A stretch of 64,000 nucleotides of DNA from a virus (IMGVR_UViG_3300009499_000148:1-64000), one strand, 5' to 3'. Counted from the stretch's first letter, positions 15,356-61,854 are shown. Numbers and translations are program-made. The notes: generated from the sequence alone by a model not told the origin.

Positions 15356-16270
15356 TCATTCATAGATGAGAACGAAAAGGTTCACGAACGTCTGTGCGCC
15401 CAATGAGTCAATGAACACCTTTCCGACAAAAAACACATGCTTTTCCGGAAAAGACGCATCATCGGTCGTCACAACGCCGTAATCGATGACATCAAGCTTC
15501 GTTAGGCTATCCTGCTTCAACTCAAACATCTGTGAAACGATGTTGCTGCGTATGCTTGTAGAACTAAACTCAATCGAACGCTCTTCTTTTCCAACCAATG
15601 AAGCCTTGAGCTGCTCATACGTCATAGATGTCTGCCTCTGCCCAATCACTGGATAGTTTCCCAAAGGTGCGCCACTAACATTGACGGGAGGCATGTATCT
15701 AAAATTTGGAAGATGCGAAAGTCTCTTATCCTGAAAGAGTGATTCGATGTGTTCGACTCGTGCTTGACTCACATCTCTTTTTCGAAATGGAGAAGAGTCA
15801 GTTATTGAAAAATTGATTACGTTCGTGTTTGTCGTAAACTCTGTGTCATCGTCGAACACCATATCATCGGTGCCAATCGCTCTAAGCTTCTGAAAATTAT
15901 CTATCGATGACGCCAACAACGACCCAGCAAGCGATGCAAATGCAGAGCCCGTGACCACAGAAAGATATACATCAGACGAACCAGACAACACCTTTCCATC
16001 CCTAACACCCAATGAGCTACCACGATACGGCATAAGCTTTCCTGAATCATCTGCCTCAAACGTGATTTGGTCCTGAGGCAATTCACATGCCTCAAGATAA
16101 ATTCTAGCAGATGCATCAGTTGAACCACTCACTGCATCACCCTGGTAGAATGTTTCAGCATCAGAGAATGACACAAACTCAATTCGCATCTTTCCTGTTG
16201 CTAACTGTCGCCTACCCTCCTGTGTGATTATCGTATCCATGATACGTGTCTTGTTGTCTAGTATGCCCAT
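15356..16270 (-). CDS. Baseplate/tail protein, paralogous N-terminus to 5206-5904
   Basis: MGILDNKTRIMDTIITQEGRRQLATGKMRIEFVSFSD aligns by eye with MGFLSHETNNLILDAVLTDVGRQFLS..FSVIKFALAD. Confidence 0.6.
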   Translation of the reverse strand: MGILDNKTRIMDTIITQEGRRQLATGKMRIEFVSFSDAETFYQGDAVSGSTDASARIYLEACELPQDQITFEADDSGKLMPYRGSSLGVRDGKVLSGSSDVYLSVVTGSAFASLAGSLLASSIDNFQKLRAIGTDDMVFDDDTEFTTNTNVINFSITDSSPFRKRDVSQARVEHIESLFQDKRLSHLPNFRYMPPVNVSGAPLGNYPVIGQRQTSMTYEQLKASLVGKEERSIEFSSTSIRSNIVSQMFELKQDSLTKLDVIDYGVVTTDDASFPEKHVFFVGKVFIDSLGAQTFVNLFVLIYE

Positions 16271-16289
16271 GCTTTATGTCTCCAAAGTA

Positions 16290-17693
16290 TCAAACTATAA
16301 TCTTAAACCCCTGACATATCGCAGAACCAGACACAGATGAATTTGATATAGAAACATTATACCAATCATTTGCAGGAATTATGATGCTTCCTGTTGAAAC
16401 CACATCACTCAAAAGCCCTGCACCAGTCAAAACAAGAATGATGTCACCGGTTGAAAAACGTCTCATTCTCAACGTTGTTGTGTCGCCCGAGAACTCACTG
16501 CCCATCATTGCTCGTCCAGATGAAAATGTCGCAGACGTGATATAGACGGCACCGATGATTGTCTCTATCGTTCCTGAGATGTTATTCGGTGATGGGATGA
16601 CGTTGTATGCCGTCTGTGCAGTCAGCGTTGCTGCAGTTGAGATTGTGATTGCTCCATTGCTAGCGCTAGAAACAGAAACGTTGTTTCCTGCAACGATGTA
16701 GGGTGTTCCATCAACGAGCCTCGTCAATGAACCAGACATACCGAGAGTAAACGATGCTGTCGTGGCACTGATTGGACCAGTGAACGTTGTTCCAGACACT
16801 GTGGCAATGATGCTATCTAGAAACCCGACGGTGACATTTGAGCCAGCGCCTCCATCTGTGATTGATATACCGGTGCTTGACGTAAGAACACGCTCATTTG
16901 CAAGCGATGATGTTGCACTGAGCACGACATAAGATGCAGTTGCATCAAAGACTGAACCAGCTGCGGTCGATGATATCGTTATCTGTCCATTCGACGCAGA
17001 TGCAACTGTTATGTTGGAGCCAGCTGTGATATATGACGTTCCATCAACAAGTCTCGTCAATGAGCCAGATATGCCTTGGATGAATGAACCAGTGCCAGCG
17101 ACACGAATGTTGCCAGAAAAAAGAGACCCTGTAAGCGTCGCAATGATGTTATCACGAAATCCTATGGTGATTGTGCTTCCAGCTCCACCATCTGTCAGTG
17201 ATATTCCCGTGCTTGATGTCAGAACACGTTCATTGGCGAGTGATGATGTTGCACTAAGAACGACGTATGATGCAGTTGCATCGAATGTGCTACCACCTCC
17301 CGTTGCAGTCGATGATATCGTTATCTGTCCATTCGATGATGACGATATCGTGATATTCGACCCAGCAACAAGATATGACGTTCCATTCGTCAGTCGAGTC
17401 AATGAGCCAGATATGCCCTGAACGAATGAACCAGTGCCTTGCACTTGGATGTTTCCGGCAAAGTATGATGTCGATGAACCTCCCGTTGATGTGAATGTTA
17501 TCTGTCCATTTGATGACGACACTATCGTCATGCCAGAACCAGCGACAAGATAGCTCAGCCCTGCGTTAGTTTGTTGTATCGAACCAAGAAGCTCACCACC
17601 AGACAGACCAGAGACACGTGTCCTGATGATGTTTCCCTTAAGGTCCTTTTTTAGGAGGAAGGGCGTCTTGTCGGCTTCATTCCTCTCAACCAC
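16290..17693 (-). CDS. Ser/Thr/Gly-rich repeat tail fibre or decoration protein
   Basis: Four copies of (SGSLTRL.DG)TSYL.AGSNIT.SS.SNGQITIS and two copies of FDATASYVVLSATSSLANERVLTSSTGIS.TDGGAGS. Confidence 0.75.
   Translation of the reverse strand: MVERNEADKTPFLLKKDLKGNIIRTRVSGLSGGELLGSIQQTNAGLSYLVAGSGMTIVSSSNGQITFTSTGGSSTSYFAGNIQVQGTGSFVQGISGSLTRLTNGTSYLVAGSNITISSSSNGQITISSTATGGGSTFDATASYVVLSATSSLANERVLTSSTGISLTDGGAGSTITIGFRDNIIATLTGSLFSGNIRVAGTGSFIQGISGSLTRLVDGTSYITAGSNITVASASNGQITISSTAAGSVFDATASYVVLSATSSLANERVLTSSTGISITDGGAGSNVTVGFLDSIIATVSGTTFTGPISATTASFTLGMSGSLTRLVDGTPYIVAGNNVSVSSASNGAITISTAATLTAQTAYNVIPSPNNISGTIETIIGAVYITSATFSSGRAMMGSEFSGDTTTLRMRRFSTGDIILVLTGAGLLSDVVSTGSIIIPANDWYNVSISNSSVSGSAICQGFKIIV
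16640..17560 (-). repeat. Intragenic tandem duplication (unit about 110-113 codons)
   Basis: Near-identical DNA such as gtcgatgatatcgttatctgtccattcga (~16966 and ~17308) and gtcaatgagccagatatgcc (~17056 and ~17398). Boundaries approximate. Confidence 0.8.
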
Positions 17694-17728: not shown

Positions 17729-20700
17729 TTAAAATGAGACTATGGTTGAGTTAAGTTCTGTCAAATCAAGCGGGTCGTTCCTGTTCATCACAATTCCATC
17801 AAAATACGGCATGCTAGATGTTGCTTCGATGCTTAGGTTTGATGAGAACGTCTTCGCGGGTGATGTGATATTCACAGTTCTCGGTTCAACAAACTTAATC
17901 TGAACCGGTGATGCAGTCTCGCCAGGCTGACCTGATAACGTACCATCTGCGCTATAACCGACAGTATCATAATATTTTGAGTCTAATCGCTGCTCAAACA
18001 TATCTCTAAACTGGCCGTAATGAGACGGATTGAAAACGGCTTTTGTGTATTCTGGGAGCGCGTTTAAAATTCCGTACTTAAATCCCCTAAACACAGAATT
18101 AAAGATTGTCTCAACATCACCGCTTGAGCCAGCACTACGAGATGCCCAATATGTCACTCCGGTCATCGTTCCAGAGACAGTGCCGCCGATACCGTAGATG
18201 TGCAATAAAACATTTCTGGGTGTTTGTGGAAATAAACCTGACGCATCTTCACCGTCAGAGTCTCTCAGATACACTATCGGAAATGACGGTACAAGCGACT
18301 CACCGTGGTTAAGAATCCTTGCAACGGTCAACTTGCTAAAGATGGGTTGTGATATTGCACTACCCAAAACACCACCACCAAGCTGGCGTGTTGCCTCAGT
18401 GTTTGACACAACGTCAACGTCTCTTTCAACGCTAGCATACTTCGGTTCAAATGGAAATGCTCTATCCCATGTAGCATCGGCGATGACGTCTGGATACGGC
18501 GTCCCTGCAGATGTGATTAGATACGGCGTCCCAGACGATGCATTTGAATAATAACTGTCAAGGCCCAAGATGACATGGTTGTAGCTAACGTGGTTATAGA
18601 CTGCGCTACCGTTGATTTGAACTATCTTGTCGATGCGAGGCATCAATGTATCATAAAATCTCTCATTATCAGAGACAAGTTGAACATGGCGGCTGAGTCC
18701 AGGAATGCGTGCTCTGTTCTCTGAACCGTTTGTTAACGTTAGGCCAAAGATGTTATTAACGCTTCCTGTGTAAAGTGAAGACGCTAACACACGTCTTGAT
18801 GATGCATCATTCGTCATCGTTCCTGAGATGTATACATCATACGCGGAACCACTATATAGCTGTCTTGGTTCAGTAAGAAATTGGTCGACTATCTCAGGAG
18901 AACGAATGTCTTCATGCACCTCAACTGTCGTCAGCTCTTGATTGACAGTCTGATGGAATTCTTTGTTTTCACGTAATAATGAACCGTATAGCAACAACCT
19001 ACCCTTGCCGGGTGCAATCGTTAGTTCGCTGGCACGTCCCTCGACTACGCTCCCTCCGACGTTTGGAACACGACCCTCTGCAAACATCCTCTTACCCATC
19101 GGTACCTGCCATCCCATGATAAGCTTATCTGTCGGTAAGAGGATGTATGGGTTGTTTGTAGAATTAAAAACGTTCGGCGTTGATGTTGCAGTAAAACCAT
19201 CATCAATCAACGAGATGGATGCAGACACAGTATGACCCAAAACGCTTGCAGAGAGGTCTCTTCCCGTTGGAAGCGCAGTTCCAGCACGACCGCCGGGTTT
19301 ATTAGCAGTGTAAATTATCGCCGCAGTGTCATTGATACCTGCGTACATGTATGAAATCTGTTCATTTACAACTGGTGATTTAATCGTCGCAGACAACACA
19401 TATGAACCAGCCCAAAGCGCTTGGTTTGCATCATACGTGATTGAGACGTTCTTGATGTTCAAGTCACGCGAAAGAAGAGATAGATTCGCGGACGTTGCAA
19501 GCGAATGAAACGGACTGACCTGTGCAAACGTGATTATATCTCTGACTGAATCAACTGTTGTTGCAGTCGCACCAGACGAAAGTAACGTTGCACTCGGAAT
19601 CATGATATCTAGGCTTCTAGACGGTAATGGATACGAATGACCAGCTGATGAGAAGTTCGCAGACGAGCCGAACACTCCATCATGCGTTGCACACAATAGC
19701 TGCGCAGTCTGTGCACGTGCAGAATATGGATTTCGTTGGTTCAATATGAAGAATGTTGATATGGGTGTTCCGTATGTACCTCGTACAAAAACTGTGTCAG
19801 TTGCTGTTGTAGAAACATCACCGACTGACGCACTTTGGTTCGTGAACACCGTCAATGCACCAAGAGAACCAGAGAATGAGCTAGTGTATGCCGTGTAATC
19901 TGTCGTTGATAGAGGCGTTCTAACGGGTGAAAGTGCTGCACTGCCCAAACGATAGCTTCCTGAGAACTCGTAGACTATCTTCTCAACGACAAACGGATGA
20001 GATATGTACTGAGACATATCAAGAAGCTGTGATGACGTTGCATGAAACTTCGGATGTAGAGGAAATCCGAAATTTGACATTGGAATTGCTGCCTGTCGTC
20101 CCTCTACTGATGCTGTGATTGCGTAGCTAGGAGAAAATCCGTAGCATAGGTCTCTAACATTTTGCTCTAATGAAAGCTGTGGATTATTACCATACAGGTA
20201 GCCCTGTGTTCCAGTGATGCTTGTTGGAAGCCCACGACCTATTCCCTCCCATTTCTTGCTCGAAAAGTTGTAATACATCATTGGGTAATTGTTCGTTCCA
20301 TCGAACACCCAATTCCCAGGAACAGAGTCAGCGCTCGTCATGGCTGACCCAGTGACACCGCCATTTCGAATCCCAGCCGTGTATGCGACTGTCGGATTCA
20401 TATCAATCTCAATGATTGTTTTTGCGGTCAATGGCCCAGAAAATCCTGGGCCAACATCTGTTATACTGCTTCCAGTCGCATAAAACGGGTCGAGCATAGC
20501 GTTCGACTGCCATAGTTTCGCTGAATCATTGAACGGTCTGTGCACATCGATTGAATCACGAAAAACAACGAACTCATCAGCGATTCCCTTTCTAACTGTT
20601 CCAGTCGCCGTTAACGATGATGTTACATCTGTAAGGTCAGACGTTATCAGTGTGCTGTTGATTGTAGACGGTAGGTTGATGCTAGTGTTCTCACTGAAGA

Positions 20701-20845
20701 TAACGACCTTGGTATCATCAAATTTTGAGAATGATGTACCTAATCTGTATTGGTCTCCAGTTCGTGTAATTGTTGGATATGAGCCAGTCTCTGCATCAAT
20801 ATCACGTAGCTGCACACGCGGAGGAAGTCTAATCTTTTTCTTCAT
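17729..20845 (-). CDS. Large virion structural protein
   Basis: 1038 aa, S/T/G-rich, about 12 [ST]G[ST] motifs, within the structural operon. Confidence 0.65.
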   Translation of the reverse strand: MKKKIRLPPRVQLRDIDAETGSYPTITRTGDQYRLGTSFSKFDDTKVVIFSENTSINLPSTINSTLITSDLTDVTSSLTATGTVRKGIADEFVVFRDSIDVHRPFNDSAKLWQSNAMLDPFYATGSSITDVGPGFSGPLTAKTIIEIDMNPTVAYTAGIRNGGVTGSAMTSADSVPGNWVFDGTNNYPMMYYNFSSKKWEGIGRGLPTSITGTQGYLYGNNPQLSLEQNVRDLCYGFSPSYAITASVEGRQAAIPMSNFGFPLHPKFHATSSQLLDMSQYISHPFVVEKIVYEFSGSYRLGSAALSPVRTPLSTTDYTAYTSSFSGSLGALTVFTNQSASVGDVSTTATDTVFVRGTYGTPISTFFILNQRNPYSARAQTAQLLCATHDGVFGSSANFSSAGHSYPLPSRSLDIMIPSATLLSSGATATTVDSVRDIITFAQVSPFHSLATSANLSLLSRDLNIKNVSITYDANQALWAGSYVLSATIKSPVVNEQISYMYAGINDTAAIIYTANKPGGRAGTALPTGRDLSASVLGHTVSASISLIDDGFTATSTPNVFNSTNNPYILLPTDKLIMGWQVPMGKRMFAEGRVPNVGGSVVEGRASELTIAPGKGRLLLYGSLLRENKEFHQTVNQELTTVEVHEDIRSPEIVDQFLTEPRQLYSGSAYDVYISGTMTNDASSRRVLASSLYTGSVNNIFGLTLTNGSENRARIPGLSRHVQLVSDNERFYDTLMPRIDKIVQINGSAVYNHVSYNHVILGLDSYYSNASSGTPYLITSAGTPYPDVIADATWDRAFPFEPKYASVERDVDVVSNTEATRQLGGGVLGSAISQPIFSKLTVARILNHGESLVPSFPIVYLRDSDGEDASGLFPQTPRNVLLHIYGIGGTVSGTMTGVTYWASRSAGSSGDVETIFNSVFRGFKYGILNALPEYTKAVFNPSHYGQFRDMFEQRLDSKYYDTVGYSADGTLSGQPGETASPVQIKFVEPRTVNITSPAKTFSSNLSIEATSSMPYFDGIVMNRNDPLDLTELNSTIVSF

Positions 20846-21669
20846 GAACGCCTCATGCCACCGAATGCGATTGAATCAACACCATACGGAGAATTATCAT
20901 ACGTAAAGCCCGTTGATGTTGATTTTTGACGTGCTAAAAACAATATATCACTATCAGACGACATCGAGACTATAGCAACAACTATACCATATGAATTAGA
21001 GCCCGACAGTGAGCCCGATGCAAATGTTCGATTTAGGTATGCGCTTTCATTGAACGGTGTTATCGTCTTTTCACCCTCTGGAAATAGACCTCCCAGATTA
21101 ATTGCTCCTGATGCAACACCCATGCTATCTGAGGCATCAACGTATAGATTCAATGCTTGCACAGTCTCACGTGAATCAATGATGCTCACGACTGTATCGG
21201 AGCGACGAAATGCATCCTCATTTCCGCTGCCGAATGTTCCCCTGATGGTGTGTGGCTCAAACTCTGTCGTCGATACCAAAAAATTTCTTGCATCTATCGT
21301 GAGAGGTTCAACGAATCCTCCGATTGTCTCTATATCATTGAATGATGCATTATCTAGAACGACTGGGTACACCAACGATGCAGTGTTATAGATGATTGCA
21401 ACTGGGTCGAACTTGACAAGCTCTTCAAACTTTGCGTCGATGATAAACTCACTCGACTGCCCGTAAACAGTGATATCAATCGTGTGGTCATCTTCACCCG
21501 TGTCCAATCGAGGTAGCGTTCCAGCGTACCTCTGCACATCAGTGATTATCTCAACACCCTGACGCATGTGGTCGATGAGTGCAGTATCAGAACCAGACAT
21601 GTCTGCTGTCGCACGTGTGCCAGGCACGTTCGGTGCTTCAACAAATGGTGTGAAAAATCCCGACATCAT
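20842..21669 (-). CDS. Hypothetical virion protein
   Basis: 275 aa with ATGA-coupled overlaps on both sides. C-terminal GFTYDNSPYGVDSIAFGG. Confidence 0.6.
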   Translation of the reverse strand: MMSGFFTPFVEAPNVPGTRATADMSGSDTALIDHMRQGVEIITDVQRYAGTLPRLDTGEDDHTIDITVYGQSSEFIIDAKFEELVKFDPVAIIYNTASLVYPVVLDNASFNDIETIGGFVEPLTIDARNFLVSTTEFEPHTIRGTFGSGNEDAFRRSDTVVSIIDSRETVQALNLYVDASDSMGVASGAINLGGLFPEGEKTITPFNESAYLNRTFASGSLSGSNSYGIVVAIVSMSSDSDILFLARQKSTSTGFTYDNSPYGVDSIAFGGMRRS

Positions 21670-24600
21670 GACCTCCTAATCAGTGCTTCGAACTGTTGAA
21701 GTAAAATCGTTCCCTTGAGGCCGTGACGATTGTCTTCACCGAGGTATATGTCTGTTGACATATGCTCAAGCTTTGCACGCTCTAAGATGTGGCTTTCAAT
21801 TACAAAGTTCGTGCCCAAAAAGCGTGTTTTTCGTGGCACAAGCTGCTCAATGAATGTTGATATTCCAAGAACAGAATCAAACCACTTGAAAAACTCAAAG
21901 AACTGTCGAAGTCTCACCTGACCCGTTAGACGATTGAAGTATATATCGCGCATATTTTCAAGCTCAGGATAATCAGGAGAAAAGATTAACTCAGGATTAC
22001 CCAGAGCGCTATTGAACTCATCAAACGTTGAGAATATCTTGATGATATCATCGTTCAATGCGTCTGCAATCGAAAAATCGATTGAAAATCGTGTGTCGTC
22101 ATTTGGTATCTCACTTCTGGGAATCTCATGTATGGGACCGACTGCACCGCCCAACATGTTAACGTTCTGGTAATCGAGAAATCCCCTGACCCTGACCTTG
22201 TTGTTCGACGCTGCCTCATCAAATCGCGGTGAAAGCTGGCTATAGAACATTCTCTGTGGCTCTAGAACTGTCGTCGATGCCTCGAAGCCAGACCCTGTGA
22301 TATGCATGTTGTTCTGCGAAAAATCAAAAACGATGTATGAACCATCAGCATTCGACTTTGTGATGGGTTGCTCAATCGATGCATCAACACGAAGCCTACC
22401 AAATGAACCAGATGTTTTTGGAGCAAATCCAAAATTTGTTAATGGGTCCGCAACGCCTATCGACCTAAAATTCATGACATGCTCATGCCACTCATCAATG
22501 GTCAGCCCTGTGCTCCAAAATCTAATCTGTCCGACGAGACCGTCGAAGTCAGTGATACGAGCACTGCTTGAAACAAGTGGGTCGTTCAAGAACAATGAAA
22601 CGCTGTCTAGGCTCTGTGAACCTATCGTGAAAAATGTTCCTGATGCGTTGAATTGCGGTGATATTATCTCAAATGCATTCTGAGAACCCGTCGCAGAACC
22701 AGACTCATTAAAGAATGCGCTTGTGACGTGGCTTTCAACAAGTGTGCCAAAGTTTTGTCGAGCTGCCCTAACAAAGTATGACGCAGAAACGAATGCTCCA
22801 ACATCATCTGCACGGTTACGACCGAAGCTAACGTTCCACTGATGACCATCCATGACATCGACTCCCGTCAGTGGTAGATACAATGTCGGATGCGTCGAAC
22901 CGCTATAACCAGGCGACACACATAACAATAGGCCCGAACCCGATATCGCTAGAAGGTTTGTTAAAACACCTCCTGAGCCCGAGGGCCCAGCGATTGTGCC
23001 CGTCGTATTATAGCGCACCAAGCTCTGGGACACGGCGTGTGACCCAGTCAATAGCGATGGAAATCTATACATCGCCTCATACGTCCATGAACCTGATGTC
23101 ATCAGGCCGTCGCTGGCGACATTTGACACAGACAGGATGGGAGACACACGCACAAATGTACCAATTGGAAGGGGATACCCGGGCTCATACCTTGAGCCTG
23201 ATAAGAATGGTGACCTCAAGAACGGGCGTTGAGCGTTGACACCGTGGCTATCGACAGCCAATGAAGCCGGTGTCGCCAATGAACCACTGAAGTTAAGAAA
23301 CGTTGATACATCATGCTTCGTGTCTCGAGAATCCTCAAGGCTTCTGAACGAAGGACCCCCGAACTCACGAAGACGAAAGCTCTTATCTGGCTCAATCCCC
23401 ATTGAGCGCAAAAGAACCCTGATGCTATGCAGCGTGCCCTTCGACCTGATGACCTCTCCAACGTTCGTTAAAATCCTTCTCCAAAGCTGGTTCTGCACAT
23501 ACTGCAATGATGTTGTGTTTGTGCTTATAGTGTCTGAGATGTTTTCTGCATCGATGAACTGCTCGACAGATGCATCGATGAAAAACGCTGGCATCTCAAA
23601 TCCGTAATACCTCGATAAAAACTGCAAGAATTGGTCTGCCGTGAATCCCGTCTTATCGTAATCGACGTGTATGATTGAACCGAACAGGTCAATCATCATC
23701 TTGATTTCATCAAAAAAACGTGCCCATGTGTAAAGAAGCGCAGAGAGAAGCTGTGCAGAACCAAGCTCTGCAGAGCCCGGTGGCCCTGAGCCTGAAATTG
23801 CATCGACTATCGTTCCTGCTTCATGCTCGAATCCATCAAACGTTTGACCCTCTTGAAAGTAATGCGTCGGGACAAGCTTCGTTATGAGGTTCGGGTTTGT
23901 GGCATCGTATGAGCTTGCAGACGCAAGAAGCTCAGCATTGAAGTCGCTGACCTCGCTGTATGCGGGAAACAGAACAGGATGAAGCGAACGCTTCTCAGAC
24001 GTCATTGGTGATGCGATTGACCCAGTTGAGCGATTTGATGCCCGTATGTTTGAGACCAATGAATGTAGTGAATTGCCCGAGCTATCGATGACGATTGAAT
24101 CGGTACCTATGCTACCCGTGGGTTCATTGAACTTCAGATACAACTTCAGGTCATCTGATGGAGTTATCGATTTCCTTGCATTTGTCGATTGCTCCTTGAG
24201 ACTGATAGTCTTATGAAACACGCGCAGTTCGTCGATAGAACCAGATAGCGTCTGTGTCGGTGTGAAAGAACTGTGCGACGACCCAGAGCCGATGATGAAT
24301 GGTGATGTTGGAAACCCAAACTGTCCAAACTCCGACGCACGTGATGACGTCGCAACGAGCGCTTCATTGACATAGAGTTGGATGTTGTTGATACCGGGAT
24401 GCCTATCGAGCGTTGCAACGATATGATTGAACTGTCCTTTTGCAAGCGATGATGAGATGACCAGCGATTGAGAGCCGCTAGCGGCCATAAAAACGATATT
24501 ACATGCTGACGTCGATGCCGACTGCGACAACGCTAGCGTTATGCCCTGAACGCTACCTGATACCTTCTGACACACGATCTGATTGCCGTTTGTGACGCTT

Positions 24601-28583: not shown

Positions 28584-29051
28584 TCAGCCTCTCACATACA
28601 GCGTTATCATTATCTCTTTTCCGACAATACCGAGCCGTGGCACATCATACACAATCTTTATATCTACGCGCTCGACGGTGCCACCCTGACCCGGTATCTG
28701 CTTTGACTCAAATGTCCGAGGGTTGATGAACGGCATGTGCCTATTGATGGCATCCCTGATGCGTGTTATCGCCTCAGAATCAAATGCTTCACGCCCATGC
28801 TCCATCGTCAATTCTCTAAGATTTGCTCCAAAATTGAACATTCCAAGGCGTTCTCCATGGTTCGTCAGCAGCAGGTTTCGAAAATTATCCTGTATCTGAT
28901 TACCGATGTCGAAATGCATTCCGAACAATCCATCATTCTGCGTACCAAATCTCAGTGGTGTGATGAACCCGATTGGTTCAGTGTTTTCAACGACCTTGAA
29001 CTTCTGTAATGATGAGCTTTCACCAGCACTTTTGAAATCAAGAATAGCCAC
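28584..29051 (-). CDS. Baseplate wedge / sheath initiator (gp25/GPW-like)
   Basis: QIQDNFRNLLLTNHGERLGMFNFGANL..I.DAI.RHMPFI is the gp25 signature. Confidence 0.9.
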   Translation of the reverse strand: MAILDFKSAGESSSLQKFKVVENTEPIGFITPLRFGTQNDGLFGMHFDIGNQIQDNFRNLLLTNHGERLGMFNFGANLRELTMEHGREAFDSEAITRIRDAINRHMPFINPRTFESKQIPGQGGTVERVDIKIVYDVPRLGIVGKEIMITLYVRG

Positions 29052-40137: not shown

Positions 40138-40140
40138 TTC

Positions 40141-46656: not shown

Positions 46657-46690
46657 TGGATGACCCTCAACAAGATACAGTTAAAAAAAA

Positions 46691-53726: not shown

Positions 53727-54445
53727 CACTTTAAGAACCCTCTTGCTCTGACCAAATTGACTGTCGCAAGCTGTTTTCTCTCTGCCCAATCCCTATCATC
53801 AACAGAACAACTCCTGATGCGATACAGATAACACACATCTGGGATGTATTTTCTTACCTTCGCAACCGTCAATAGTGGCAACATGAGAGATTGATCGTAT
53901 CCCCTTTGAAACCACACACTCTTGTTATCCTTGAAGTTATCATCAGATATAGAGTTCAACAGACGAGCGTCGAACGTTCTGAGATGTGATGAGCACCACG
54001 GCCACTGATATGGATTAACGTTCTGTGGCATCTCCCTTGAGATGTTTATGTCATTGATGTCCCACCGGTGTGCTGTCCATGCCACGGTATCGGGCTGTGA
54101 GTGTGCATCCTTCACCAACCTGACGGTCTCAGTGTTGCAGAGCTGGTCATCGCCGTCAATGATTGCGATTATGTTTCTGTCTGCATCATTGTTGGCGATG
54201 ATTGTACGTGATGCATGAATGATGTTATAAAGAGCATACATCCTGCTTGACCCAAGAACGACAGCAATCCTACCATCAGACGCCATGGCCTCCTTTAGAG
54301 CATCTCTCGTGTCGTCAGTCGAACAATCGTCTATGAATAACGCAGACCAATCTGCGTCAGATTGCGCCTTCAACGATTGCACCAGGTCGTGGATGTTCGG
54401 AGCAGCATTATAGCATGGAATGATGAACGTTAACATATGTTTCAT
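53726..54445 (-). CDS. Glycosyltransferase, GT2 (GT-A)
   Basis: FIIPCYN, IDDCSTD and IIDGDD (DxD). SHLRTF. Confidence 0.9.
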   Translation of the reverse strand: MKHMLTFIIPCYNAAPNIHDLVQSLKAQSDADWSALFIDDCSTDDTRDALKEAMASDGRIAVVLGSSRMYALYNIIHASRTIIANNDADRNIIAIIDGDDQLCNTETVRLVKDAHSQPDTVAWTAHRWDINDINISREMPQNVNPYQWPWCSSHLRTFDARLLNSISDDNFKDNKSVWFQRGYDQSLMLPLLTVAKVRKYIPDVCYLYRIRSCSVDDRDWAERKQLATVNLVRARGFLK

Positions 54446-54449
54446 GATA

Positions 54450-54731
54450 TCATACATCATCTGATGTGAATTGAACAGGGTGTGCCGTGTCATCATTCGG
54501 TCCATAAAACACCCACGAAGTTCTCCACGCACGGGGGTCAGAAAACTCAACAATGTTACCGTCGGCTATTAAAAATACAAACCGTCTTACGTGCTTTTGA
54601 AGCACTCCTGCGTTGGTGTTGACATCGACCAATAACAGAATAGACAATTCATAATTGCTACGTGAATCCATGAATCCCGTGTAGACGAACAACGTTCCAA
54701 CTTCAAACACTGATGTGCTCATTCTTTGCAT
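54450..54731 (-). CDS. Small paralogue array member 8 (PGTLF family)
   Basis: FEVGTLFVY..ILLLVD..FVFL..DPRAWRTSW. Confidence 0.7.
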   Translation of the reverse strand: MQRMSTSVFEVGTLFVYTGFMDSRSNYELSILLLVDVNTNAGVLQKHVRRFVFLIADGNIVEFSDPRAWRTSWVFYGPNDDTAHPVQFTSDDV

Positions 54732-55021
54732 CTCTTCATCACATAAGACTTATAATCGTATAACGTCATCTCATCATGCCCAGGCTCATGAACAGTCCAG
54801 TTGATGATGTTGTACAGCCACGCAACCGGTTCTGGCAAATCATCATGATAATCTGGTTCTCCACCGCCATTTGACCAATCAATGACATCTAAAAACCGAT
54901 GATGACCATCTATTTCACCTACATAGAGACGATACATTGTTCTCATGCCAAGCCAACGTTCTGCTGACATGCTATCATCAACAATCATAATGAACAGCGT
55001 TCCTGGCACATACTCATTCAT
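54719..55021 (-). CDS. Small paralogue array member 7
   Basis: YVPGTLFIM..RLYVG..HRFL..EPVAW...NW. Confidence 0.7.
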   Translation of the reverse strand: MNEYVPGTLFIMIVDDSMSAERWLGMRTMYRLYVGEIDGHHRFLDVIDWSNGGGEPDYHDDLPEPVAWLYNIINWTVHEPGHDEMTLYDYKSYVMKRCKE

Positions 55022-55287
55022 ACATCACTGTTTATGACAAAAAGACTGGTACATTCACCGTTTAACGGACTGACAAGCCTCCAGTTCTTCGCGTTCCAAC
55101 TACGTGGGTTGTCAAGCTCAAAAACATCACCAAAAGAAGACAGAAAAAACATAGCGTTATCATTAACACTGACGAGAATAAATCTCTGCTTACACTTAGC
55201 AGTACATGAGCAGTAAAATAATGTTCCTGGAATGAATTGCTCTGCATCATCTAGAAATAAGTTTTTAAAGTTTTTCATTTGACTCAA
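55018..55287 (-). CDS. Small paralogue array member 6
   Basis: FIPGTLFYC..FILVS..MFFL..NPRSWNAKNW. Confidence 0.7.
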   Translation of the reverse strand: MSQMKNFKNLFLDDAEQFIPGTLFYCSCTAKCKQRFILVSVNDNAMFFLSSFGDVFELDNPRSWNAKNWRLVSPLNGECTSLFVINSDV

Positions 55288-55543
55288 CTGGACCCAAGAA
55301 TGTCGCTACTCCATCTGGAGAGACGATAAGCCACCCATTTGACCACATACCCACCCACATGTGTGGATTTACGACTGTTTCAAACATGACTGCACCGTTG
55401 TCATGTTTGCTATGTGAATGACTTAAAAAACGATACCACATTAAATTATCAGATTTAATTTCAAGGCTAACGAATAGACGAACCTCAACCTCCCATAAAT
55501 TCTGCTTTATTAACAGACAACCGGGATAGATGTTATTGCTCAT
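55265..55543 (-). CDS. Small paralogue array member 5
   Basis: IYPGCLLIK..RLFVS..YRFL..NPHMW...GW. Confidence 0.7.
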   Translation of the reverse strand: MSNNIYPGCLLIKQNLWEVEVRLFVSLEIKSDNLMWYRFLSHSHSKHDNGAVMFETVVNPHMWVGMWSNGWLIVSPDGVATFLGPVESNEKL

Positions 55544-55552
55544 ACCATCGCT

Positions 55553-55822
55553 CTATTTCGAAAACACCACAAGTTCATCTGAACATGATGAAAGCACATA
55601 CCATATGCCGGGCCACCAGCGAGGATGAATGTAATCATGCAGGTCGCATGTCGTGGCACCTGAGTCATAAACGAACGTTCTTAAAAAGAGATAACGTCCA
55701 TCAGACAGACTCGAAACAAAGAGAGCAGTGATATGCGATGCATATTGATGCGTCATATCGTCCATTTTTCTAATCAACAGCATACCTGGAGTAAGCGTCT
55801 GTATCATAGCATCAGTGACCAT
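55553..55822 (-). CDS. Small paralogue array member 4
   Basis: LTPGMLLIR..ALFVS..YLFL..HPRWWPGIW. Confidence 0.7.
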   Translation of the reverse strand: MVTDAMIQTLTPGMLLIRKMDDMTHQYASHITALFVSSLSDGRYLFLRTFVYDSGATTCDLHDYIHPRWWPGIWYVLSSCSDELVVFSK

Positions 55823-56138
55823 CTACGTCTCCCAATATCAGTTCATTGGTTGAACCGAGAAAAACGACCTTCGTTTCAGGTGCAAACACAGGATTCCATA
55901 ACGACACAACCTCGATTGATTCAACGTCGTGTGCACCGCTGGGTCTAACGCAGACATCCACCTCTAAGAACACGTACACATCACCAAATGGATGCTCATT
56001 GTCACGAATGCGATTCACCAACAATCGATACACTGTGCCTTGTCTCACATTCCGTTTGTTCCAAATCAGCAACGTTCCCAGAGGGATATTCACGTTTGAC
56101 AGAAACACATGTTCTCTCTTAAAAGCGGACATAATCAT
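55812..56138 (-). CDS. Small paralogue array member 3
   Basis: IPLGTLLIW..RLLVN..YVFL..WNPVF. Confidence 0.7.
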   Translation of the reverse strand: MIMSAFKREHVFLSNVNIPLGTLLIWNKRNVRQGTVYRLLVNRIRDNEHPFGDVYVFLEVDVCVRPSGAHDVESIEVVSLWNPVFAPETKVVFLGSTNELILGDVDGH

Positions 56139-56379
56139 TCAACCTAACAGGGTATGACTCCCCAACATTGATGAATGAAACATTTTTTTTGGATATCCAA
56201 AGATGAGGAGCATCGTAGCATGCTAAATAAGAAACGCCGTTAAACGTCTCTAAAAACTCATACTTGTTTTCAACAAACAAATCACCCATGACAACTCGTC
56301 GAATCAACAACAGAATCATGTTTGGTATGTCTTCAGATTGAGGTTCTACAAAAAACAGCGTCCCTGGCAACCACTCCAT
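56119..56379 (-). CDS. Small paralogue array member 2
   Basis: WLPGTLFFV..LLLIR..YEFL..APHLW. Confidence 0.7.
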   Translation of the reverse strand: MEWLPGTLFFVEPQSEDIPNMILLLIRRVVMGDLFVENKYEFLETFNGVSYLACYDAPHLWISKKNVSFINVGESYPVRLNDYVRF

Positions 56380-56387
56380 ACTGATGA

Positions 56388-56681
56388 TTATAGCACGACT
56401 TTAACATCCATTACAACGCTGTAGTATGCATCGTTGTACTCAGTCAAAGGCCTCTCTACATCATCCGGCTGTATGTAGCACCATGAACGTGAGTGCCAGT
56501 CTATCGGTGACGACTCAAATAGCTCACCATCGCCATCGAGAAACACGTATGACGAAGAGCTGCCAGGTGATTGTCGTATCAGAAGCAACGCTGCATGGCG
56601 GCGAGCCAACACAGAACGGAAATCTTTCCTAAAGAACAGCGTCCCTGGCTTAAAAAACTCATTCACAGACGTCTGCATCAA
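56388..56681 (-). CDS. Small paralogue array member 1
   Basis: FKPGTLFFR..LLLIR..YVFL..SPIDWHSRSW. Confidence 0.7.
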   Translation of the reverse strand: MMQTSVNEFFKPGTLFFRKDFRSVLARRHAALLLIRQSPGSSSSYVFLDGDGELFESSPIDWHSRSWCYIQPDDVERPLTEYNDAYYSVVMDVKVVL

Positions 56682-57897
56682 TTGAGAAGATGTTATCAGA
56701 AAGCAACCTAATCGCTCCTGTCGGTGATGACATCAGCTCTTCTGTCTGAAATGGTTTGAGCGTCTCTCTAACGGCGGCGTCCCTACGGGCCTTATACGCC
56801 TCGTGGTCAAGCGAACGAAGCGCGGCGTTCCCTGGGTCCTTGCACACTCGACATATCGGCGGCACAGACAGCGGGTTGGGAAGCCTCATTGAGTTGAACA
56901 CAGGATGATGCCACGCCCAAAACAGGTCATCATTTGTCATCTTGTCAATGTCTGCTATCATCGGGCTTATCCTGTTGCAGACAGCTAGCTCAGACTGTCC
57001 CTTTCGAAACGGGTCTGACTTGAACAGAAAGCTGCTGAACGGCTCATGGCATCCACCAGCATACGGCTTCTCATCAGTTGGGAATGCAGTCTTTCCACTC
57101 ACAACATCAAGCGCTGGGATGATTGACTGCTGCTGGTGCTTCTGCTCAACGATGAACTTCGGCTCTTTCGGGTCAAGCTGTAATCCAACACGAGCTGCCT
57201 CATCATAGACTGCTCTTAGAGTGTCATTCGTTAGCTTGACATCATCGTACAATGAGACATCTTCATCAAAGTCATTTGGAGACTTATAATAAAGATAGAC
57301 GGTCATCATATCAACACCAAGAGACTTCGCCATCCTCACTGCCGCGACTGCATCTACCTGATTCAAACGTCCAATCCCAAAGTTGATGTTCGTCCTCGTC
57401 GGCACACCCTTTCTTGCGGAGCAAAAATACCTGATGTTCTCAATCACACGCTCGAACCTGTTTTTATTGCCCGGGCCCATCACCCTAGCATAGACCTCAG
57501 GTGTCGCTGCATGCAATGAGAACGTCAATGAGACGGGTGCATGCGCAATGAGAAAATCAGACCTCTCTTTCGTTAGAAGAAGACCGTTCGTCGATAGGTC
57601 TATCACGATGTTCTTGTTGATGTCCCTTATCGTCCTGATGATGTCGTCGAACGTTGGCGCATATAGGGGCTCACCCAACCCAGTCCGACCACCGATATTC
57701 ACGACACGTGCAGAGCGCAACATCGACGTGAACGCTAGAACGTTCTCTACAGTCATGATGTTGCGTTGGTAGCTCTTTCCTATCTTATGAAGCTTCTCAT
57801 CGACGCCGTTGATTTCACAGAAACCACACCTATAATTGCATTGTGCGATTATGGGAAGAGAAATGAAGTCAGGTCTCATCTGTGTGTTCATAGTCAC
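56659..57897 (-). CDS. Radical SAM enzyme with SPASM/twitch-like C-terminus
   Basis: CNYRCGFC, GEP, STNG and FSLHAATPEVY. C-terminal CHEPF..VC..ICRVC. Confidence 0.9.
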   Translation of the reverse strand: MTMNTQMRPDFISLPIIAQCNYRCGFCEINGVDEKLHKIGKSYQRNIMTVENVLAFTSMLRSARVVNIGGRTGLGEPLYAPTFDDIIRTIRDINKNIVIDLSTNGLLLTKERSDFLIAHAPVSLTFSLHAATPEVYARVMGPGNKNRFERVIENIRYFCSARKGVPTRTNINFGIGRLNQVDAVAAVRMAKSLGVDMMTVYLYYKSPNDFDEDVSLYDDVKLTNDTLRAVYDEAARVGLQLDPKEPKFIVEQKHQQQSIIPALDVVSGKTAFPTDEKPYAGGCHEPFSSFLFKSDPFRKGQSELAVCNRISPMIADIDKMTNDDLFWAWHHPVFNSMRLPNPLSVPPICRVCKDPGNAALRSLDHEAYKARRDAAVRETLKPFQTEELMSSPTGAIRLLSDNIFSIDADVCE

Positions 57898-58283
57898 CGA
57901 CTTAGCTTAAATCGCTTCTTTAAAGCATCTCTAAGCATATTAATTTTATTTAAACGAGCTTCATGTTCTGGTGCTAGTTGATAATTACAGTGCTCACGAT
58001 GCATACCTTCAAAATCTTTAAGACTAAGTCCAACAGCTTCTTTACGAAGGGTTTCAAGATCTTTATCGTTGTGTGTATCTAAGCCTCTAATCTTAGATTG
58101 CTGGTTAGCAAAATTTTGATTAACAATATTATGATTTATACCACGTGGAGGTTTAAAGTTATCAATCCACTCTTCAAAAAACGCACAAATTTGAACAAGC
58201 GCTTGTCTTTTAGCTTCTTTTTTACCAACGTTAAATATGAAGCTAAAAATATCAAAAATATTAAAATGAAAAATGCTAAACAT
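57894..58283 (-). CDS. AT-rich inserted hypothetical protein
   Basis: 129 aa with a Phe/Ile-rich N-terminus, SD AGGA and very AT-rich DNA. Confidence 0.55.
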   Translation of the reverse strand: MFSIFHFNIFDIFSFIFNVGKKEAKRQALVQICAFFEEWIDNFKPPRGINHNIVNQNFANQQSKIRGLDTHNDKDLETLRKEAVGLSLKDFEGMHREHCNYQLAPEHEARLNKINMLRDALKKRFKLSR

Positions 58284-58320
58284 ATGTTCCTAAATTTCAA
58301 AAAATTCTAACTTCAATATA

Positions 58321-59055
58321 TCACCAATCATTCAAGAATGCACTTGCATCGAACTTAGGATGCTTCACAAGCACCTGTCCGTAGTCAATCTGCTCATCAG
58401 GGATGCGTCTATCGTCAAAGAAAATCCTGCGGTCAGAGCGAATGAGTTCTTTGTCTTCGTCAAGCCCGTCGATGAACCTAGCAACCTGCATGTCTGGGCT
58501 CTTTGATGATGGGTCGTAGTCGTCGAAAAGTACAAACTTATTATACCTATCCTTGAGACATTCCCAGTCGTACTTTACACCCTCGAATGTGTGAAGCCCA
58601 TCGATGTAAATCAAATCGACGTTCTCCTTGATGTTCAGGACTGCATCATTGACTGTTCCCTTTATGAGATTGAGCTTCGAAAGCCACTCCCTTGGAAACG
58701 CCTGACCCAGGAGCTTGAGGTGGTTCTCATCGAAGTTCGGGTCGACGCTATACACCCTGCCGTCGTCAAAGCCCATGTCTGTCATTGCCTTTGCAGCGCA
58801 GAGGGATGCATAGCCACGACCGAACCCTATCTCCAACATCGTTCGAATCTCATAGCGCTTGATAAGGGCATAGATGAGGAGACCACGCTCAAAATTCGGT
58901 CTAAAAAAAGCTCCTGCAGAGCGATAAAGCGGGTCTGATGGATGACGAGACTTTTTAGCAGTCAGCTCACCAATCTGGTCAAAGTCTCCAAGTGAAAGTG
59001 AAGAAACTGGATAATGTAGCTCTTCTAGCTTCTGTCTAATGTCTGTGTGTTTCAT
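58321..59055 (-). CDS. Class I SAM methyltransferase (Methyltransf_24-like, sugar O-methyltransferase type)
   Basis: LEIGFGRGYAS, YSVD, DLIYIDGLHTFEGVKYD and LFDDY. Confidence 0.88.
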   Translation of the reverse strand: MKHTDIRQKLEELHYPVSSLSLGDFDQIGELTAKKSRHPSDPLYRSAGAFFRPNFERGLLIYALIKRYEIRTMLEIGFGRGYASLCAAKAMTDMGFDDGRVYSVDPNFDENHLKLLGQAFPREWLSKLNLIKGTVNDAVLNIKENVDLIYIDGLHTFEGVKYDWECLKDRYNKFVLFDDYDPSSKSPDMQVARFIDGLDEDKELIRSDRRIFFDDRRIPDEQIDYGQVLVKHPKFDASAFLNDW

Positions 59056-59936
59056 GGTAGGAATTCCTTTAATTTAGAAAAATCACCGCGCTTAACTTCT
59101 TTATCTGTTATTCTAACCAGCTTTAAATTATTGGTTTTAAACCAAGCATTTTGTTCACTGTCAGTGTGGCGTCTGCTATAGATGTTAATGTCTCGTTTTG
59201 TTTTTAACAAAGCTAATTCTTCGACTGTTCTGTCAAGGCCATGCCAATATACACCATCAAGCTGGATATACGCATCAACACTCTTGACATAAAAGTCAAT
59301 AGGCCATCTATGAATGAATTTCTGATAAATGACATTGTCAATGCCAAATGTTGATTGTAGAAATGTCTCAAGCTTGGCTTCAGGTTTTGTTTTTTTTCCA
59401 TATGTCCCATTTCGCTTCATCGTTTCATGACGTCTTTGATGAGCTTCTGGTGTCCAAGCTTCTTTAATTGACTTACTTTTTTTCTCTTTAATTTCTGGTC
59501 TATTTTGTGCTTCTTTTTGAATTTCACTTGCTTTTGCTTTATACTCAGGAGTACTATGTGAACGTTTAATAGACACACTTCGTTTTTGCACAACATCATG
59601 ACGGTTTTGAGCTATTTTTTGAGCTTTAGAACGTTTTTCTTTGACATCTGGTTTCGATAATGATTTTGTAATAGCAGCTATTGTTCGCTCCCTAATCTCT
59701 TGATTTTGCCAATTTTCTTTCGTCTTACTGACATTCATCGAATGAACTTTTCCGCCAGGTTTGTTTGCATTTTTTCGACAATCATCATTACAAAATGTAT
59801 ATTTCTGTTTAAGAAAATCAAGATTATGTGGTCTTATAAATGATAACGAGCATTGATCGCAAATAAAACGCATAACAGTTTTCTTTTTATTCTTTCTCGG
59901 ATGTGAATACTCAATCGTCTCAAACTTTATGAACAT
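59052..59936 (-). CDS. Putative homing endonuclease: Zn finger, 17-aa repeats and Vsr/DUF559-like nuclease (paralogue of 44819-45697)
   Basis: CDQC..FCNDDC. RHETMKRNGTYGKKTKPE versus QHETMKRNSSYGQKTQPE in the paralogue. WPIDFYVKS..IQLDGVYWHGLDR. Confidence 0.82.
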   Translation of the reverse strand: MFIKFETIEYSHPRKNKKKTVMRFICDQCSLSFIRPHNLDFLKQKYTFCNDDCRKNANKPGGKVHSMNVSKTKENWQNQEIRERTIAAITKSLSKPDVKEKRSKAQKIAQNRHDVVQKRSVSIKRSHSTPEYKAKASEIQKEAQNRPEIKEKKSKSIKEAWTPEAHQRRHETMKRNGTYGKKTKPEAKLETFLQSTFGIDNVIYQKFIHRWPIDFYVKSVDAYIQLDGVYWHGLDRTVEELALLKTKRDINIYSRRHTDSEQNAWFKTNNLKLVRITDKEVKRGDFSKLKEFLP

Positions 59937-61854
59937 TTCTCTTCATCCACTCTTCTATCACTTTAGGATGTTTAATTTGACACCTTATGCTTGGTGTTGG
60001 CCTTGAAAAATCAACTCTCTGATGAAAAATCCATCCACCCATTTCTTTGCTCAACTTCTTTGCTAAAATGTCAATTTCATCATCACTGACGTCTGACCAC
60101 TTCTTGTCGAAAAATTTATTGTTATCTGCAGTATCTTCTTGCTTAACGTCGTAAAGACTTTCCCAATGCTTTGACCAATAATTCTTATAAGTTTTTATCT
60201 TTCTTTCGATATTGAACCAACTATAATGATGCACTGACGGGAGGGCTTTCACAGCTTGATTGAACCACTCTTCGAACTGTTTTAGTGCATCAGGATTGCT
60301 AAATGCAGCCTGCCGAACTTGTTCAACATCAGGCGTATAGAACGATGCAGCAGGGACAACATCAAATGTATCATGTCTGACATAATCACAACCATCGCTT
60401 CCAGGAGCTGAAAATAATTCGCCGTCGCTGTCGAACTTTCTCAACTGTCGCGGAATACCATGTGTAGTAGTTGGAGCGTTCCAACTCAATCGCCACTTCC
60501 AAACGTTGATATCCATTCTTACCTTGTCTGGCCCACCCCAATATTCAATCACTGGTAATGAAAGAACAGGAATGTTTTTCGGAAGGATTTTTGCAACATC
60601 TCTAACCTTTTGATAATCATCTTCATGAACTAGTTCGTCGCTATCTTGCTGCCAGCATAATGTTTTTGTGCAAAGCGACCGAGCCAACGCCTTTTGTGCT
60701 CCATCAAATACAGCAAACCTCTTATGGCTCCAGTCTCTCTTCTGCTGATGAATAACAACACGTGCATCAGATGCAGCTAACGACTGCAACTTTTCCCACG
60801 TTCCATCAGTTGAGCCGCCATCAACAATCACTACTTCATCACAAAACCCTAACATTGACGTAATACACTCGACGAATGGATAATCTTGGCTTATACAATC
60901 TTTTGTCGTCGTATATCCAGATATCGTTGGCCTGTAGTCGATATCTGCTTTAATACCATTCCAGAATGTCTCTCTTGCTGCATAGAGATACGCTTCTGTG
61001 TTGAACATATCATCAGTTTCAAACCAAAGTTCATGACGATGCTGAACATTATCATTCAGATAAAGCTTACATCCAAGAAGTTTTGCTTCGATAACGAGGC
61101 GTGGACATGTATCTTCGCCTTTTGGAAGAAAGACAAGTCCTTCTGCTTGAACAAGCTCTTCAAGCATTTTTTCATAAGGTAGCCCCCAAACAACACGATG
61201 CTCAAGGCCATGCTCATTGCAGTATGCAACTGCATCATCAGTGCCCTTAACCCAAGACGGAGAACCACATACGATATTTCCCTTTCTAGGAAGTTGTTTT
61301 GCATTAAGAAGCTTAATTCTAGCGAATGTCTCATCATCAAATACAGATGAAAGTACCATATTGGGACGCTGTGATAGAAACGGAAATGCCTTATGATGTA
61401 TATCCATCTGCTTTTCAGACATCCACCACAACGACTTAGCACCATAAAGAAATGCAGATACAAGCTTCCCTCTATCTTCGTTCTGACAATCACATTGAGT
61501 TTTCTCAATATCACTGTGCTTCATCGGAGAACGATAACGACAGAAGTGAAAATCAAAACTGATAATTGAATAACTCATATTGCCAACAATTGTTGGAATG
61601 AGCTCTGTGTTCAAATTTGAAAAGTTTCCGAATATCCAGTGTTTCCCATGGCCTTGTTGTAATAGCTCAACAGAAACATCACGTGAATGAACACGATACA
61701 CTTCAAATGGAGATGCTTTAATTAAAGCCTCTGTCGTTAGTTCTGCTCCTCCGTTATAATCAGAAAGGAACATGTCAGAAACGACAACAACATCGCAGTC
61801 TGCAATCGACTTTGCTTTTGAAAAAAGATGTTCTGCTAAATTGATAATAGTCAT
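59920..61854 (-). CDS. Bifunctional glycosyltransferase: GT-B (GT4-like) plus GT2
   Basis: N-terminal half GGAELT, WVKG and DTCPRLVIEAKLLGC. C-terminal half FCDEVVIVDGGSTDGTW and QDSDE. Confidence 0.9.
   Translation of the reverse strand: MTIINLAEHLFSKAKSIADCDVVVVSDMFLSDYNGGAELTTEALIKASPFEVYRVHSRDVSVELLQQGHGKHWIFGNFSNLNTELIPTIVGNMSYSIISFDFHFCRYRSPMKHSDIEKTQCDCQNEDRGKLVSAFLYGAKSLWWMSEKQMDIHHKAFPFLSQRPNMVLSSVFDDETFARIKLLNAKQLPRKGNIVCGSPSWVKGTDDAVAYCNEHGLEHRVVWGLPYEKMLEELVQAEGLVFLPKGEDTCPRLVIEAKLLGCKLYLNDNVQHRHELWFETDDMFNTEAYLYAARETFWNGIKADIDYRPTISGYTTTKDCISQDYPFVECITSMLGFCDEVVIVDGGSTDGTWEKLQSLAASDARVVIHQQKRDWSHKRFAVFDGAQKALARSLCTKTLCWQQDSDELVHEDDYQKVRDVAKILPKNIPVLSLPVIEYWGGPDKVRMDINVWKWRLSWNAPTTTHGIPRQLRKFDSDGELFSAPGSDGCDYVRHDTFDVVPAASFYTPDVEQVRQAAFSNPDALKQFEEWFNQAVKALPSVHHYSWFNIERKIKTYKNYWSKHWESLYDVKQEDTADNNKFFDKKWSDVSDDEIDILAKKLSKEMGGWIFHQRVDFSRPTPSIRCQIKHPKVIEEWMKRNVHKV

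Follow-up and report, generated by a model that had tools for sequence, protein, structure and literature searches.

Can a tailed phage glycosylate its own tail, and does it mark the acceptor sites with a short peptide signal? The question is raised by a 64,000-nucleotide stretch of viral DNA (IMGVR_UViG_3300009499_000148:1-64000, hereafter the window), in which, between positions 15356 and 61854, an island of glycosyltransferase (GT) and sugar-making genes lies directly next to tail genes whose products are rich in the tripeptide [ST]G[ST]. A first-pass annotation had read the tripeptide as the acceptor sequon of a phage-made glycan coat and had pointed to a ∼29-kb glycan island. This proposal is partly supported by the analysis below, and it passed all but one of the refutation tests that were run, the placement of the motif in a structural model favoring neither side. 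As judged from sequence comparison, the motif appears to travel with two adjacent genes for GT4-type enzymes, here called GT4a and GT4b, and not with the 29-kb island. A phage-made O-glycan at Φ[ST]GS (Φ, hydrophobic residue) on exposed tail surfaces, begun by this GT4 pair, is the reading that we favor, at a probability that we would place a little short of even.

A Φ-[ST]-G-S excess in outer tail proteins

The window makes up the initial 64 kb of a viral contig of 106 kb from IMG/VR, for which CheckV gives a completeness of 29%; the contig is therefore a fragment of the ∼350-kb genome of an uncultured aquatic jumbo phage. All long open reading frames (ORFs) of the window are on the minus strand, as are the tail, GT, nuclease, and sugar genes for which window coordinates are given below. 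The tail genes include those for a gp25/W-like baseplate wedge protein (28584..29051) and a gp6/J-like baseplate wedge protein of 622 residues (26713..28581), both assigned by Pfam and PHROGs, the latter not enriched in the motif. The genes downstream of this pair are large and without known family, save for LamG-type matches in the proteins of 1160 and 544 residues; by gene position, they encode the baseplate periphery and the fibers. PHROGs left most tail proteins of the window without a family, and megablast of the tail region against cultured phages gave no match.

We counted the motif in the translated minus-strand ORFs and took the expectation from shuffled sequences. Pooled over eight peripheral baseplate and fiber proteins, [ST]G[ST] occurs 71 times, where 20 occurrences are expected. 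With a hydrophobic residue (h) in front, the position in which the first-pass annotation had seen most of the motifs, 51 occurrences stand against 8 expected (z ∼16). In the same eight proteins, G[ST][ST] and [ST][ST]G, with the residues in another order, occur as often as chance predicts, and the [ST]G[ST] excess persists under shuffling inside 30-residue blocks, so that composition alone is ruled out as an explanation. The form hSGS occurs 27 times (2.6 expected) and hTGS 13 times (1.9 expected). Serine occupies position 3 in 56 of the 71 motifs, compared with 59% expected (p = 6e-4), and position 1 is unbiased. The consensus is better given as Φ-[ST]-G-S, which is ∼tenfold overrepresented in the enriched proteins (∼40 observed, 4.5 expected).

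A cause at the DNA level was rejected because the codons at the motif sites are diverse. Paralogy or a shared repeat was likewise rejected, as an all-versus-all BLASTP of the eight enriched proteins found no shared similarity; the 467-residue fiber alone owes much of its motif count to an internal repeat. Avoidance of Asn-Gly (deamidation) was tried as the source of the Ser-Gly preference and discarded: NG is depleted here (0.60), yet no such depletion is seen in the related Flavobacterium phage immuto (0.83) or the related Microcystis phage Mel-JY01 (1.05).

The largest count belongs to the 1160-residue baseplate-periphery protein (21666..25148), which has two LamG/pentraxin-like jelly rolls and 21 motifs against 3.5 expected (z = 9.6). 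Some 12 of its motif sites are kept in position among homologues at 40–69% identity, and the excess is present in 17 homologues. Orthologues in immuto, Mel-JY01, and LR756508 (a 484-kb relative) are 16–19% identical, too low for a site-by-site comparison of motifs. The 513-residue protein encoded directly downstream of the gp6-like gene (25148..26689) has 10 motifs (2.0 expected), and the 1038-residue peripheral tail protein (17729..20845) has 12 (3.8 expected). A LamG-like tail protein, the ORF of which is cut at the edge of the window (2..1633; weak Laminin_G_3 match), has 8 (2.1 expected) in the C-terminal 544 residues contained there. In the 467-residue fiber-like protein (16290..17693; CBM_X2 match), 10 motifs stand against 5.8 expected, a weak excess (p = 0.05), and most of them lie in a threefold internal repeat, G(N)I.V.GTGSF.QGISGSLTRL..GTSY. 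The tail spike of immuto (L020 35281-38442) begins with SGSF.G(D)GS.LTG repeats that resemble this fiber repeat. Φ[ST]GS is found three times, where 0.2 is expected, both in the 304-residue protein encoded downstream of the fiber gene (15356..16270) and in a 275-residue tail protein (20842..21669), and a 408-residue protein of no known family (3576..4802) has four SGS (1.2 expected). The hand counts of the first-pass annotation agree exactly with this recount for four of the five proteins that it had named as enriched. For the LamG-like protein at the window edge the enrichment stood and the number, given as ∼6, did not; for the fiber the count of 10 stood, with an excess that is only weak.

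The excess is restricted to a few proteins, most of them recognizable as outer tail. Across the 106-kb contig, excess Φ[ST]GS is limited to six tail-module proteins. The structural proteins of 1398, 827, 612, and 622 residues are as poor in the motif as first described, with one [ST]G[ST] each (0.7–2.6 expected), and the enzymes, for which few motifs had been noted, are with the other genes of the contig at or slightly under expectation. In the immuto genome, the enriched proteins are those of the baseplate periphery and the fibers, the tail sheath, and a 373-residue neck-region protein; capsid, tape measure, and enzymes are not enriched, and the major capsid protein has one motif (0.3 expected).

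Two adjacent GT4 genes and the distribution of the motif

GT4b (32626..33843; Pfam Glycos_transf_1) is a 405-residue GT-B glycosyltransferase with an intact EX7E motif, and GT4a (33851..36325; Pfam Glycos_transf_1) is a GT-B glycosyltransferase split at its EX7E by a Hint/LAGLIDADG intein. The end of GT4a and the start of GT4b are 7 nt apart. The pair sits at the head of the baseplate gene array, at the baseplate-proximal end of the island, and both enzymes are soluble, as no transmembrane segments were found. EX7E is kept in both; Glu-285 and Glu-293 of GT4b are invariant, and GT4a carries EGFGLSTLE. The GT4a intein (34259-35431, minus strand) is inserted exactly at EX7E, between NIS and C-NEGFGL, and eight orthologues are without it. 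It is unusual for a glycosyltransferase gene to harbor an intein, and the site at which this one is inserted is highly conserved.

The model of GT4b is a canonical GT4 fold of just two Rossmann halves (predicted local distance difference test (pLDDT) 94). Its structural neighbors are generic GT4 enzymes, among them the protein Ser-O-GlcNAc transferases SdgB and GtfA and a chlorovirus GT; the alignments to SdgB and GtfA, which are ∼500 residues long, span ∼355 columns. A search with the GT4b sequence against the PDB gave insignificant matches only.

Relatives of the phage were found with the gp6-like 622-residue protein as marker, more than 570 of them in IMG/VR. The cultured ones are immuto (160 kb) and Mel-JY01 (190 kb), with a gp6 of ∼30% identity in both. 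Among the GT genes of the island, only the adjacent GT4a and GT4b (32626-36325) appear from sequence searches to be conserved beyond close relatives. Orthologues of the two are present in immuto and Mel-JY01 (E 1e-44 to 1e-48). The two metagenomic genomes of the clade that are 100% complete both carry GT4b, as do several at 44–70% completeness, and metagenomic homologues of GT4b number more than 2,400. Rhodothermus phage RM378 has GT4a plus a diverged GT4b-like neighbor. In Mel-JY01, the annotation divides the GT4a orthologue between two ORFs, 190 and 302 residues long (L025 5442-6933), which may reflect a split gene or a sequencing frameshift, and the GT4b matches in genomes G006 (C1:54738-56060) and G007 (C1:160155-161417) contain one in-frame stop each, TAA and TGA.

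Counted genome-wide as Φ[ST]GS (observed/expected), the motif is in excess where both GT4a and GT4b are present, with 43/10.5 on this contig, 79/18 in immuto, and 43/13.5 in the complete genome G006. Mel-JY01 and the pair-bearing complete metagenomic genomes show the excess too, as does RM378 (33/8.2) with its diverged GT4b-like gene. When the genes after gp6 are considered in the IMG/VR relatives, 30 of 34 have a 4–14-fold excess. Equal enrichment in relatives lacking GTs had been named at the outset as evidence against the proposal, and no phage examined without the conserved pair shows an excess. The ratio is 23/19.2 in cyanophage Syn9 (no GT4a; GT4b not searched for), 2/2.8 in Streptomyces phage Blueeyedbeauty (distantly similar GT pair only), and 34/28.3 in LR756508 (GT4a, no GT4b); for T4 and P2, neither of which gave a GT4a or GT4b match in a search of the phage collection, it is 1/3.1 over the outer baseplate and fibers and ∼0–1 motif per protein, respectively. 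Two further candidates for motif-poor negatives, L093 and L101, were rejected, since longer contigs of the L093 lineage bear GT4b and contigs related to both lineages show the excess.

The most informative case is LR756508. Its gp6 is as near to that of the window as are those of immuto and Mel-JY01, and the genome shows no motif excess over ∼130,000 residues, genome-wide. A quick gp6 tree (moderate support, root uncertain) places LR756508 among pair-bearing lineages, so that its lack of GT4b and motif looks secondary and a secondary loss of both appears to be the simplest reading. At LR756508.1 305432-306748, a GT4a orthologue (E 5e-71) is followed by an unrelated 261-residue ORF at the place of GT4b.

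The variable island and its surroundings

Pfam identifies GT domains in six island genes, four of GT4 type and two of GT2. The first-pass annotation had counted eight GT domains in seven genes; the island is real, and that count is not upheld, since the 326-residue ORF at 47663-48643 and the N-terminal half of a 644-residue ORF have no family match in Pfam. The sugar-making and tailoring enzymes of the first description were confirmed by Pfam, namely NeuB, SIS, a cytidylyltransferase, two SDRs, a class IV aminotransferase, DUF2334, a radical SAM enzyme, and a methyltransferase. Upstream of the GT4 pair (32626-33843 and 33851-36325) lies a gene for a PD-(D/E)XK nuclease (38363..39250; Pfam), which is also found upstream of GT4a–GT4b in immuto (L024 3965-4906) and Mel-JY01 (L025 3376-4272). 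At higher coordinates comes a variable sugar-activation block (39559..47434) with the SIS isomerase, the NeuB-type synthase, the two SDRs, a TIM-barrel enzyme, the class IV aminotransferase, and the cytidylyltransferase. A variable transferase and tailoring block (49224..61854) comprises DUF2334, two GT4-like genes (50802-51755 and 52827-53789), two GT2 genes (53726-54553 and 59920-61854), the radical SAM enzyme, and the methyltransferase, with homing endonucleases interspersed.

By BLASTP, the glycosyltransferase regions of immuto and Mel-JY01 match the island in nothing besides the GT4 pair and the PD-(D/E)XK nuclease (E 1e-17 to 1e-48). The part from 36 to 62 kb, the nuclease aside, combines several GT families with nucleotide-sugar genes and is polymorphic among relatives. 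The island encodes no multi-pass membrane protein and no N-terminal hydrophobic segment. The first-pass annotation had seen no flippase, Wzy polymerase, or lipid-carrier initiator in it; correspondingly, no flippase, polymerase, priming transferase, or ABC exporter was found on the 106-kb contig, which covers ∼29% of the genome, and enzymes of the host could take their place.

From GT4a through the gene of the 612-residue protein, no intergenic gap exceeds 36 nt. The 253-residue ORF right after GT4b (31573..32334) is a possible late sigma factor, with a weak Sigma70_r2 match only (E 0.077); if it were a gp55-like late sigma factor, the GT4 pair would be tied to late transcription. A promoter scan found no T4-type late promoter (TATAAATA), and scans for sigma-70 promoters and terminators gave matches at chance level. 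Genes of homing-endonuclease type are very dense in the glycan island and the tail module of the window (36325-37296, 44819-45697, 49943-50818, 51752-52894, 59052-59936, 5906-6832, and 2421-3443) and include NUMOD3, GIY-YIG, C2H2 zinc finger with DUF559/Vsr-like ends, and TnsA-like types.

Acceptor signal or structural turn

The motif excess, its confinement to few proteins, its distribution with the GT4 pair, and the solubility of the enzymes are shown by the analysis; glycosylation of the virion proteins, the acceptor role of the motif, and the order in which the enzymes act are inferred. Nucleotide- or cytidine monophosphate (CMP)-activated sugars would be made in the host cytoplasm and moved directly onto the late structural proteins of the phage, with no lipid carrier. 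The soluble GT4a and GT4b would start the glycan on the serine or threonine within hydrophobic-[Ser/Thr]-Gly-Ser, a signal that would be displayed at strand ends and tight turns of β-rich domains in the baseplate periphery and the fibers, and in relatives also in the sheath and the neck-region protein. GT4b, whose presence follows that of the motif excess, is the better candidate for the motif-reading enzyme. The glycan would be lengthened and varied by the remaining transferases and sugar-making genes, which differ among lineages and here include a NeuB-type ulosonic acid route. The more specific claim, that Φ-[Ser/Thr]-Gly-Ser is the first defined acceptor signal of a phage-encoded lipid-carrier-independent O-glycosylation, with GT4b reading the signal and the glycan coating exposed tail, baseplate, and fiber surfaces, is possible, with a chance that we consider somewhat below even.

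Several points weigh against a glycan. The co-distribution is phylogenetically confounded, as it is made up of a single large clade, RM378 as a distant outgroup, and what looks like one loss; the enriched ORFs of RM378 are not identifiable as structural (no family in PHROGs), and the GT4 pair does not adjoin tail genes in immuto or Mel-JY01. A GT4 fold does not name the acceptor, and by Pfam the DUF1975 add-on domain (PF09318) of GtfA and SdgB is in neither GT4a nor GT4b. The literature searched reports no glycan on any virion of the clade, and most of the island is variable, which fits published host-surface polysaccharide remodeling (PMC7824862). In the AlphaFold model of the 1160-residue protein, both jelly rolls are confident, and Foldseek confirms the LamG/pentraxin-like domains, but the model as a whole is only moderately confident (pLDDT 61). 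Its motif glycines lie at β-strand ends and in 2–3-residue hairpins (e.g. Gly-198, Gly-225, and Gly-737) and are no nearer to strand ends than other glycines, and therefore the structural mapping does not separate an acceptor from a turn. Gly-Ser is the textbook type II′ turn, so that a purely structural role is possible. The first-pass annotation had asked whether the motifs lie in surface loops; the modeled positions are indeed exposed, which would be compatible with an acceptor but equally with a structural Gly-Ser turn at strand ends.

According to the first alternative, the motif is a lineage-specific structural Gly-Ser turn with a hydroxyl cap at the strand ends of jelly-roll, Ig-like, and fiber domains, and the GTs are unrelated to it, serving for example in superinfection-blocking surface remodeling. 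We consider this less likely than a glycan. A structural turn would account for the location of the motifs at strand ends and short hairpins in the confident parts of the model, for the match of three sites to glycines that are canonically conserved in the LamG_3 fold, and for the ∼12 sites kept in position, as structural residues would be. An analogous turn excess exists in T4, in which h[DN]G[ST] occurs 12 times (4.4 expected). T4 thus uses other residues in such turns, so the unusual feature is the clade-wide choice of hydroxyl residues and not the turn as such. Left unexplained are the Ser/Thr-Gly-Ser preference shared by non-homologous proteins of one clade, when the β-rich tail proteins of T4, P2, Syn9, and LR756508 are without it, the serine at position 3, and the missing excess in LR756508, the sole baseplate-level relative without GT4b.

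Surface remodeling itself is a published reading of such gene clusters. The GT and sugar-nucleotide clusters of jumbo phages and cyanophages have been interpreted as modifying capsule or O-antigen to prevent superinfection (Iyer et al. 2021, PMC7824862), i.e. as surface-polysaccharide diversification. With its several GT families and nucleotide-sugar enzymes, sporadic and mostly polymorphic between relatives, the 36–62-kb part of the island resembles these clusters, and host-surface remodeling is plausible for it. It fits the core GT4 pair less well, because the pair is soluble and conserved across phages of different host phyla (Flavobacterium, Microcystis, and Rhodothermus), which would be odd for a host-surface role. 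Unlike the genes of those clusters, GT4a and GT4b form a core pair across a very large clade and appear to travel with a protein motif, and no membrane-linked assembly or export gene lies alongside in the available sequence; flippase, polymerase, and priming transferase were not found in the 106 kb at hand.

It is quite improbable, in our view, that the motif is instead a site for phosphorylation, acylation, or docking of a fiber chaperone, linked to the GT4 genes by mere shared ancestry. The excess is genuine and limited to tail proteins of the kind that depend on helpers for assembly, and few independent events underlie its co-occurrence with the GT pair. However, no co-varying kinase, acyltransferase, or chaperone gene turned up, although no systematic search was made, and the two GT4 genes are the only conserved enzyme genes found adjoining tail genes. 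Very improbable is the idea that the GTs glycosylate phage DNA as an anti-restriction hypermodification of the T-even and RB69 type, with the protein motif unrelated: phage GT-B enzymes do glycosylate DNA bases (PMC13326640), and the PD-(D/E)XK nuclease is syntenic with the GT4 pair, but a search of the 106-kb contig, which covers 29% of the genome, gave no thymidylate-synthase-type enzyme (PF00303), and DNA glycosylation by the conserved pair is unlikely because immuto, which has the orthologous pair, yielded canonical dA, dC, and dT plus fdPreQ1 and no reported glycosylated nucleoside upon liquid chromatography-mass spectrometry (LC-MS) of its DNA (PMC10516641), so that the sugar on DNA considered at the outset as a counter-finding was absent from its bases.

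The favored O-glycosylation of tail proteins can be set beside three known systems. Freeman et al. (2023, in Cell Host & Microbe) reportedly found actinobacteriophage virions to be glycosylated by phage-encoded glycosyltransferases. This is echoed in PMC11256854. As in those phages, the GTs here are phage-encoded, soluble, and adjoin structural genes, and presumably modify virion proteins in the cytoplasm, either ahead of assembly or while it proceeds. The actinobacteriophage targets are capsid and tail tube, modified via Ser/Thr-rich C-terminal extensions and chemically shown, whereas the evidence here is that of sequence, and the candidate sites are a short defined motif dispersed in folded β-domains of the baseplate periphery and the fibers (in immuto also the sheath). 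The hosts differ as well, being aquatic Gram-negatives and cyanobacteria, and the Streptomyces phage with a distantly similar GT pair has no motif excess.

GtfA/GtfB of the streptococcal serine-rich-repeat adhesins and SdgA/SdgB of the staphylococcal Ser-Asp-repeat proteins are cytoplasmic GT-B/GT4 enzymes encoded as adjacent pairs, like GT4a/GT4b, and add the first sugar to serine within short Ser-X motifs that recur. GtfB has no catalytic role in its pair, whereas both phage enzymes keep EX7E and neither looks non-catalytic; GtfA and SdgB carry DUF1975, whereas the phage enzymes do not. The likeness of GT4b to GtfA and SdgB is at the level of the fold only (13–16% identity), and the phage enzymes would modify single Φ[ST]GS sites within folded domains, in contrast to the long low-complexity repeats that serve the bacterial enzymes as acceptors. 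Chloroviruses PBCV-1 and NY2A likewise have soluble GTs and sugar-nucleotide enzymes of their own, with which they glycosylate the major capsid protein in the cytoplasm at non-canonical acceptor sites; a GT of NY2A (3oy2) is the second-best structural neighbor of GT4b, again at fold level only. They are eukaryotic viruses with N-linked capsid glycans, whereas the sites considered here are presumed O-linked ones on the tail of a phage.

If the proposed O-glycosylation holds true, many abundant aquatic phages would bear a sugar coat of their own making on the surfaces with which they contact the host. The clade is very large, with aquatic T4-like and jumbo myophages, thousands of metagenomic GT4b homologues, and hosts in several phyla. 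Such a coat could influence how the phage adsorbs, which hosts it infects, how well it withstands proteases and grazers, how sticky its particles are and how fast they decay in water, and whether host defenses recognize it. The short, portable acceptor signal, with its two starter enzymes, would represent the first glycosylation sequon from a phage and might find use in cytoplasmic glycoengineering. The proposal is open to a direct test, since the GT4 genes and the motif occur together in three phages in culture, namely Flavobacterium phage immuto, Microcystis phage Mel-JY01, and Rhodothermus phage RM378 (with a diverged pair). Many phage glycosyltransferase genes now assigned to lipopolysaccharide (LPS) or cell wall modification would then be reassigned.

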